DNA of 64,000 nucleotides. Source: Eledone cirrhosa (lineage: Eukaryota). Location of the stretch: contig CAXHJY010001342.1 of NCBI GenBank assembly GCA_964016885.1, positions 62,001-126,000 on the forward strand. The letters run 5' to 3'. The first letter of the stretch is position 1. The number at the start of each line of letters is the position of its first letter. The notes under the pieces were generated by a model, which saw only the letters and a program-made list of their open reading frames with translations, was not told the origin of the DNA and made no database searches. The position numbers and the translations under genes were made by a program. Below are positions 55,306 to 56,085 of the stretch, piece after piece.

Positions 55306-55577
55306 TATATATATATATATATATATATATATATATATATATATATATATATACATATATATATATATATATATATATATATATATATATATATATATAT
55401 ATATATATATATATATATATGTATGTATATATATATATATATATATATATATATATATATATATATATATATATATATATATATATATATATAAGTTATT
55501 CCGGGATGAATCGGAGGTAACGACCGTAAGTGAGGTACTCAATACATAGCAGAGTATAAACGTTTTAATATAGATGA

Positions 55578-55626
55578 GATTCTACAGGACTAGAACTGTT
55601 TCATTCTTGAGAAATCATCAGGAATC
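55578..55626 (-). ncRNA. Type I hammerhead ribozyme (family B, left arm)
   Basis: Minus strand: GATTC CTGATGA T TTCT ca AGAA T GAAA CAG ttctagtc CTG TA GAATC. Confidence 0.82.
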
Positions 55627-55627
55627 T

Positions 55628-55676
55628 GATTCCTGATGATTTCTCAAGAATGAAACAGTTCCAGTCCTGTAGAATC
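55628..55676 (+). ncRNA. Type I hammerhead ribozyme (family B, right arm)
   Basis: GATTC CTGATGA T TTCT ca AGAA T GAAA CAG ttccagtc CTG TA GAATC; predicted GUA cleavage after 55671. Confidence 0.82.
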
Positions 55677-56085
55677 TCATCTATATTAATATATATATAT
55701 ATATATATATATATATATATATATATATATATATATATATATATATATATATAAATATATATAAATATATATATATATATATATATAAATATATATAAAT
55801 ATATATATATATATAAATATATATATATATATAAATATATATATATAAATATATATATATATATATAAATATATATATATATATATAAATATATATATAT
55901 ATATAAATATATATATATATATATATACATATATATAAATATATATATATATGTATATATATATATATACATATATATAAATATATCTATATATATATAA
56001 ATATATATATATATATATATATATATATATATATATATATATATATATATATATATATATATATATATATATATATATATATATA

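Follow-up and report, generated by a model that had tools for sequence, protein, structure and literature searches.

Penelope-like elements are the closest retroelement relatives of telomerase, and both the formation of their tandem and inverted ends and the role of their hammerhead motifs are stated to be open questions (PMC8557442, PMC11167929, PMC2377424; the published systems are described here and below from the accessible parts of the papers cited). The C-terminal EN+ elements of the Hydra clade have a single ORF combining a reverse transcriptase (RT) with a C-terminal GIY-YIG domain and carrying RWK-like, DKT and CxCx5C motifs, together with a hammerhead-bearing terminal repeat, and their two-armed features, that is an inverted 5'-truncated copy, a one-sided tail and (TA)n targets, have already been published (PMC8557442). 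Poseidon_Ac, an anole element of a different clade, was found in vitro to use two internal RT starts downstream of its ribozyme and to cut and extend both strands of AT-rich targets, with completion of the copies left open and run-off at a cap not discussed in the accessible text (PMC11167929). Penelope of Adineta vaga has head-to-head inverted terminal repeats with palindromic joints and TATA and Inr-like motifs, for which self-priming on an antisense template was proposed (PMC3846280), and in D. virilis the start of Penelope was placed in the terminal repeat, with no obvious mechanism for regenerating that repeat (PMC2377424). Minimal dimeric hammerheads and non-LTR retrozymes, finally, have type I motifs with a palindromic loop III as well as dispersed single motifs, and a circular template has been proposed for them (PMC4209133; bioRxiv 10.64898/2026.07.22.740005).

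Here we analyzed family B, a group of short palindromic repeats with hammerhead motifs noted in a window of 64,000 nt of contig CAXHJY010001342.1 from Eledone cirrhosa (GCA_964016885.1, a genome of 3.0 Gb). One system with which it can be compared is the minus-strand strong-stop DNA of retroviruses and LTR-retrotransposons, from which family B would differ in being primed at its target in the chromosome, on both strands, and in using neither a tRNA primer nor an integrase. All of the features named above for the Hydra clade recur in family B, but the element is about 6 kb long owing to a 3-kb microsatellite-like 3' UTR, whereas Hydra clade elements are generally under 3 kb, and its short palindromes outnumber its ORFs by orders of magnitude, unlike in that clade, for which the accessible text describes no junction hot spot (PMC8557442). 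The putative pattern of two internal starts, cutting of both strands and AT-rich targets resembles Poseidon_Ac, the predicted start sites of family B being about 70 nt apart and within the 5' UTR. Its head-to-head joints and its TATA and initiator-like motifs resemble those of A. vaga, but our data point to two copies made on sense templates and ending at the cap. Type I motifs, palindromic loop III and dispersed single motifs are shared with the dimeric hammerheads, from which family B differs by a U.U in place of G10.1–C11.1, a short stem II and the lack of head-to-tail arrays; moreover, in Schistosoma the hammerhead pairs on opposite strands are 100–700 bp apart, whereas those of family B touch (PMC4209133; bioRxiv 10.64898/2026.07.22.740005). 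The element adds a new member to an established clade, and its two-armed architecture has been described before.

Family B copies in the window

Positions were numbered from the first base of the 5' strand of hammerhead stem I (+1, at window position 55627 on the minus strand), with core boxes at +7 to +13 and +26 to +29, the predicted cleavage after +45 and the end of the tail near +134. In all four window copies reported by the initial annotation (22401, 27528, 55494 and 63492), one arm ends in CATCAG(G/A)AATC, as had been stated, and this is the complement of the stem I 5' strand. The parts of these copies are the following.

55307..55493, no strand: (TA)n target on the tail side
55494..55627, minus strand: long arm, +1 to +134, with hammerhead and 5' UTR tail of a Penelope-like element, +1 being the putative transcription start
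55577..55627, minus strand: putative type I hammerhead with intact core, U.U at 10.1/11.1 and palindromic loop III
55628..55689, plus strand: short inverted arm, +2 to about +63, containing the second of the core-intact hammerheads (55628–55677), with one change in loop III
55690..56000, no strand: (TA)n target on the short-arm side, running past 56000
63494..63626, minus strand: long arm, +1 to +133, with a broken GAAA box and an extra G (63627) before +1
63630..63693, plus strand: short inverted arm from +2
22401..22448, minus strand: short arm from +1, with an 8-nt deletion through the cleavage site
22449..22514, plus strand: long arm cut off at about +68, without hammerhead
27528..27593, minus strand: short arm, +1 to +66, with an intact hammerhead
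27594..27623, plus strand: long arm cut off at about +104

At 55577–55677 two core-intact hammerheads of putative type I lie head to head, with the minus arm starting from 55627 (+1) and the plus arm from 55628 (+2). The back-to-back ribozymes ascribed earlier to the family are present at the 55494 copy, but an intact pair of cores was found in only this one of the four, and at 22401 and 27528 hammerhead sequence occurs in one arm only.

The ribozyme call was based on a descriptor scan and on covariation, and no hammerhead was found among the 150 of 160 Rfam matches listed. The core (CUGANGA, GAAA, NUH and three stems) was exact in 179 of 195 family B arms, while the G10.1–C11.1 pair of type I was replaced by U.U in 191 of the 195. 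Loop II was freely variable. Among eight hand-picked subfamily rows, two stem I pairs were changed on both sides. The computed pairing of the loop III region was -12.8 kcal/mol as a dimer versus -1.4 kcal/mol alone, and a palindromic loop III that is better paired as a dimer has been reported for animal Penelope-type hammerheads (PMC4209133). Inspection by eye found no conserved extended stem I requiring upstream sequence. We regard the family B motif as a putative type I hammerhead with predicted self-cleavage. A U.U likewise stands at the base of stem II in at least two hammerhead families of the genome that are unrelated (L016, L057, L059, L039).

The earlier proposal that read-through of the palindrome would give a hairpin masking the ribozyme agrees with computed folding energies of -97 and -112 kcal/mol for such hairpins, versus -4 kcal/mol for the active hammerhead fold.

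Assignment to a Penelope-like element

Family B had been described as a self-contained unit of about 135 nt, but it turned out to be the terminal repeat of a larger element with a period of 5,966 nt. A 28-nt word from the tail had 8,270 exact matches in the genome, with none for its reversed control, and a degenerate 30-mer located at about -90 to -60 had 633 matches. At locus L181 the tail leads in frame into an ORF of 713 amino acids that starts at +182, and the terminal repeat stands both before and after this ORF, recurring 5,966 nt downstream. Upstream repeat sequence before +1 was carried by 24 of 30 ORF-bearing copies.

The ORF had 1,403 homologues at E ≤ 1e-20 out of 7,992 scored candidates. 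Nine aligned homologues had YRDD in common together with RWK, DKT, CxCx5C, CxxC and CxH, and lacked CCHH, the latter set being given as marks of the Hydra clade (PMC8557442); the query ORF itself has RWR, with RWK in most of the homologues shown. The Pfam match to GIY-YIG was weak for the query (E 0.019) and above the cut-off for the homologue P0054, and since no RT domain was matched for the ORF in Pfam or PDB, the RT assignment rests on the aligned motifs, YRDD among them. The in-frame ORF, the downstream repeat and the clade motifs together lead us to conclude that family B represents the terminal repeat, together with the 5' UTR, of a Penelope-like retrotransposon of about 6 kb, which by its motifs is placed in the Hydra clade. 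The element has the ORF with RT and C-terminal GIY-YIG, the hammerhead terminal repeat, the inverted truncated copy and the one-sided tail of EN+ Penelope-like elements, and TA repeats adjoin most tail ends, in line with the (TA)n insertion of that clade. At L181 (1–3460, minus strand) we also noted a 3' UTR with about 3 kb of mixed TG/TA microsatellite-like sequence, partly present in many truncated copies.

An adjoining inverted arm was seen in 58 of 92 copies sampled by their tails, with the outer end at +56 to +73 in 57 of these 58 and a long arm reaching to +133 or beyond. Outer ends fell at about +133 to +138 on the long-arm side and +56 to +67 on the short-arm side. In DNA contigs, which may derive from the assembly's own sample, joints to TA repeats and strand-switch joints were found. 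The head-to-tail hammerhead units without ORF that define non-LTR retrozymes were not seen among the window and sampled copies, which were dispersed palindromes or parts of ORF elements. As a separate observation, the word from +1 to +18 occurred 6,589 times in forward and 3,684 times in reverse orientation genome-wide, and the DNA contigs showed a recurring joint from about +63 back to -12, which may represent a head-to-tail array of a family B-derived hammerhead monomer of about 77 nt.

Distribution of arm ends

For the distribution of arm ends we used 92 of the first 100 listed tail matches, chosen regardless of their 5' side, two rows of which are one duplicated locus. The X-drop extension under-called long copies, and the positions of 17 long arms and 4 inverted arms were assigned manually; a DNA search with the full unit favoured complete copies and was left out of the counts. 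Long arms started at -2 to +10 in 34 of the 92 copies, at -30 to -3 in 7, at -31 or further upstream in 25 and downstream of +10 in 26, the last group being made up of 10 at +11 to +43, 4 at +44 to +47 and 12 at +48 to +105. Inner ends of inverted arms fell at -2 to +10 in 44 of 58. Per base, long arms stopped at -2 to +3 at a rate of 8.3% and inverted arms at a rate of 27%, compared with a long-arm background of 0.24% at +48 to +105 and 0.18% upstream. The upstream edge was sharp, with 46 of 109 arms from the tail-picked loci ending at -1 to +3 and none at -2 to -5. A minor cluster of arm ends was also seen at -12 and -14 (11 of 221 arms), where a T-tract resembles the sequence at +67.

The boundary of family B is a strong hot spot far above chance, without being a fixed end. 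The initial annotation had read it as defined rather than random, with variable upstream extension as the finding that would count against this; the defined, sharp position stands, but a fixed boundary was rejected, as 32 of the 92 copies reach further upstream.

The two arms of one insertion had the same loop II in 39 of 43 cases. The joints varied from copy to copy, the sole identical odd pair checked being a segmental duplicate. Overlaps of 1–4 nt were common at the joints. In 22401, 27528 and several genome copies (L037, L091 and L143) the inverted arm contained sequence absent from the other arm.

Promoter motifs and an extra G at the joint

Upstream of +1, a TATA-like box at -29 to -33 was matched as a motif in 50 of 52 long arms, a CCAAT-box, mostly near -84, in 48 of 52, and YC preceded +1 in all 52, giving a YC|A initiator; C-rich boxes lie between CCAAT and TATA. 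These promoter motifs were kept while the spacer differed among subfamilies. By motif match, the region has both a TATA near -30 and an initiator at +1, as in Pol II core promoters, although among six long copies scanned the TATA motif had a second upstream occurrence in three and the strict pattern was absent at -30 in two. The motifs point to +1 as a putative transcription start.

We further tallied by hand the base at -1 in the first 100 of 1,990 arms with an intact +1 to +18 word and a base other than C at -1. Eight of these were native copies with a point change, and the remaining 92 had G in 76 cases, A in 9 and T in 7. G was likewise in excess in arms abutting a simple repeat or unrelated flank (14 versus 4 others) and at two-arm joints with free bases (28 versus 3 others). 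As a local control, G was found in 13 of 20 arms at +1 versus 21 of 69 elsewhere (p = 0.008), in loci that had been picked in differing ways. Both arms of one insertion carried the extra G at C1:218203618/218203625 and at L048. In about 9 of the 28 G joints the sequence preceding stem I is ATG, and a fold-back extended by 3 nt could be another way to obtain it; some of the G cases could be due to such extensions or to a short arm with its end at the cleavage site, but most could not. For L1 insertions, the presence of one more G at the 5' joint has been attributed to the mRNA cap and marks templates that are capped and full-length (PMC11702581).

ORF-bearing copies and other hammerhead families

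The ORF-bearing copies studied here are the 30 best matches to one young subfamily, with 40 of 291 candidates scored. In such copies the RT comes to the ribozyme from the side of the ORF. None of them ended at -2 to +10, as compared with 34 of 89 (p = 1e-5), and 15 of the 30 reached at least 590 nt upstream, with one starting at +44.

Three other TA-inserted hammerhead families of the window were compared.

29950..30286, minus strand: family F, long arm from stem I (about 30249), long stem II, short inverted arm
62627..62842, plus strand: family H, with its hot spot genome-wide 68–69 nt upstream of the hammerhead core
49628..49801 (also 27371–27477 and 60362–60482), minus strand: family A, with its hot spot inside stem-loop II of a hammerhead-like motif

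The long arm of family F begins near 30249 at its own stem I strand, as had been noted before, and 12 of 29 arms of this family end 3–8 nt before the core, at stem I, in a tally that includes one mis-indexed reference sequence. In family H, 18 of 44 arms end at -1 to +3 of a YC|A site 68–69 nt before the core (taking H from 62627) and none at stem I; the site is a 6-nt palindrome, which could itself favour joins there. Family A (49694) has a YC|A site within stem-loop II, and 54 of 56 arms stop at this site or past it, the remaining two being the reference copies. Since families H and A break at YC|A away from stem I, the hot spot follows an initiator-like site rather than stem I. Families F and H had no TATA box at -30. 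The extra G was rare in family H and not apparent in F or A. The reading of the boundary as a capped start generalizes less well, as the other families lack a clear G excess and two of the three a clear TATA.

The hammerhead-like motif of family A was seen at L019, also at L174 and in the window at 27371–27477, 49694–49801 and 60362–60482, and the 5' box of L019 is of a U3.A8 type. An RNA started at the loop II hot spot of this family would have half a ribozyme, and a read-through copy the whole one. The family F arms at L192, L195, L200 and L205 begin at stem I and directly abut a second abundant short repeat, in each case at the same end of it, with microhomology of a few bases. Two hammerheads of another family lie on opposite strands at window positions 60722 and 61855, 1.1 kb apart, and the descriptor scan gave further hammerhead motifs at 28824 and 36237.

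Discussion

The hot spot at an initiator, the extra G and the read-through of ORF-bearing copies indicate that the sharp edge of family B is likely the start of a capped RNA rather than a ribozyme block or fold-back. The earlier suggestion of either an RNA start or an RT stop with fold-back at the ribozyme is borne out in its first half, by the promoter anatomy and the extra G; its second half is not. We consider it probable that the short palindromes are paired dead-end cDNAs that ran off the start of a capped RNA, predicted to lie at the first base of stem I.

According to this mechanism, Pol II would start at +1, and the enzyme would nick both strands of a (TA)n target and prime at two internal sites in the 5' UTR, in agreement with the two internal RT start sites and the extension of both target strands reported for the anole element in vitro (PMC11167929). 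On a capped and uncut RNA, both cDNAs would then reach the cap, after about 60 and 134 nt, adding a C opposite to it, and would be joined head to head with little trimming or microhomology. Inverted arms with sequence absent from the other arm, and the G found on both arms, make two independent copies likely, and not a fold-back. Long and full-length copies would require a template without an end at +1, most likely a circle or an end-joined RNA, possibly made by dimer-like cleavage of the two hammerheads of one transcript. If the RT made a simple jump from the cap to the 3' end, full-length copies should pile up at +1 a second time. This was not seen: the ORF-bearing copies, in a further difference from strong-stop DNA, show no stop on a second pass, and a circular or end-joined RNA fits better. 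A circular template by way of dimeric hammerheads has been proposed before (PMC4209133), but it leaves no direct mark in these DNA data, and against a cleavage step speaks the finding that, for the anole element in vitro, ribozyme cleavage was dispensable for insertion and no reads ended at the cleavage site (PMC11167929). We are evenly divided as to whether this step occurs, for which the indications are weaker.

As the putative start site coincides with stem I, the back-to-back ribozymes are likely a by-product, and the read-through hairpin, predicted at about -100 kcal/mol and hiding the ribozymes, is likely another. More generally, and with somewhat more doubt than confidence, we propose that Penelope-like elements begin reverse transcription close to the 5' end of their own capped RNA, so that uncut RNA would give only short strong-stop copies, that the hammerhead pair would be a circularizing switch through which full-length, partial-tandem copies become possible, and that the thousands of mini-palindromes would map each family's transcription start to the base.

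Cap run-off would also be retained if the capped RNAs came mainly from solo terminal repeats that kept their promoter and were copied in trans, like a SINE, with only the source of the template changed. In the DNA contigs, the upstream sequence with the promoter has about 100 times the depth of the ORF, and 25 of the 92 tail-picked arms reach -31 or further, as this source would need; by analogy, however, the anole enzyme requires RNA downstream of its initiation sites (PMC11167929), which solo repeats lack, a requirement described for the anole element only. We regard solo repeats as a rather unlikely main source.

It is improbable, in our view, that the ribozyme fold stops the RT or that the inverted arm is primed by a cDNA folded back on itself through stem I, an idea akin to the self-priming proposed in PMC3846280. 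The hot spot does coincide with the stem I 5' strand in families B and F, joint overlaps of 1–4 nt are common, and the 6-nt complementarity of stem I was used at a few joints (L067 and L029; 3 of 100 rows). A structural block would, however, act on entry to the fold (+51) and not once the fold had been unwound, none of the 30 ORF-bearing copies stops there, and families H and A break elsewhere. Fold-back, in turn, would neither yield the inverted arms that are not copies of their partners nor explain a G followed by a base other than T.

The boundary could also be read as a 3' splice site, with a YAG at -1 to +2 behind a T-rich tract that fits in all subfamilies, and the Penelope intron of Drosophila virilis does end at helix I (PMC4209133), but we find this very hard to accept, as the joints have no common upstream exon, the G is preceded by T, A or G, and in two subfamilies an AG occurs earlier, within a few bases upstream. 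Equally little speaks for a template with its 5' end at the ribozyme cleavage site (+46), the palindromes then being cleavage products: the 4 of 92 long arms starting at +44 to +47 are about 5 times the neighbouring rate, and one of the 30 ORF-bearing copies starts at +44, yet ends at -2 to +10 are the more numerous, with 34 versus 4 in long arms and 44 versus 0 in inverted arms. That family B is an independent element of 135 nt, MITE-like or a retrozyme, with paired ribozymes selected for a regulatory or dsRNA role, is hardly credible, despite thousands of short copies, a stable predicted read-through hairpin and the siRNAs that Penelope inverted repeats gave in transgenic flies (PMC3681739), as the unit belongs to an ORF-bearing element, joints differ among copies and only one of four window copies has two intact cores. 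The ribozyme block, the splice acceptor, the cleavage-site end as the main class and the independent MITE were all rejected.

In the literature listings searched, and in the accessible text of the papers cited here and of PMC6765202, a hot spot arising from cap run-off was not described. The proposed run-off mechanism predicts two template classes, with capped linear RNA giving short head-to-head copies with an extra G and an endless template giving long copies. It offers an alternative to antisense self-priming that can be tested in the existing in vitro system, it would make transcription starts readable from DNA alone, and it points to thousands of loci as possible sources of hairpin RNA directed against the element.

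Other repeats in the window

Some further structures were noted in the window. A palindrome of 390 nt with a central duplicated segment lies within TA repeats at 57156–57542 and is probably another two-armed insertion. At 27703–28724 there is an inverted repeat with arms of 378 nt, 98% complementary and separated by 266 nt. Intact-looking ORFs of non-LTR retrotransposons are arranged in tandem at 2877–8465, 9572–12997 and 13970–17065, with trinucleotide repeats between them, and we take them to represent two putative elements, one with two ORFs and the other with a single ORF and a restriction-like endonuclease motif.
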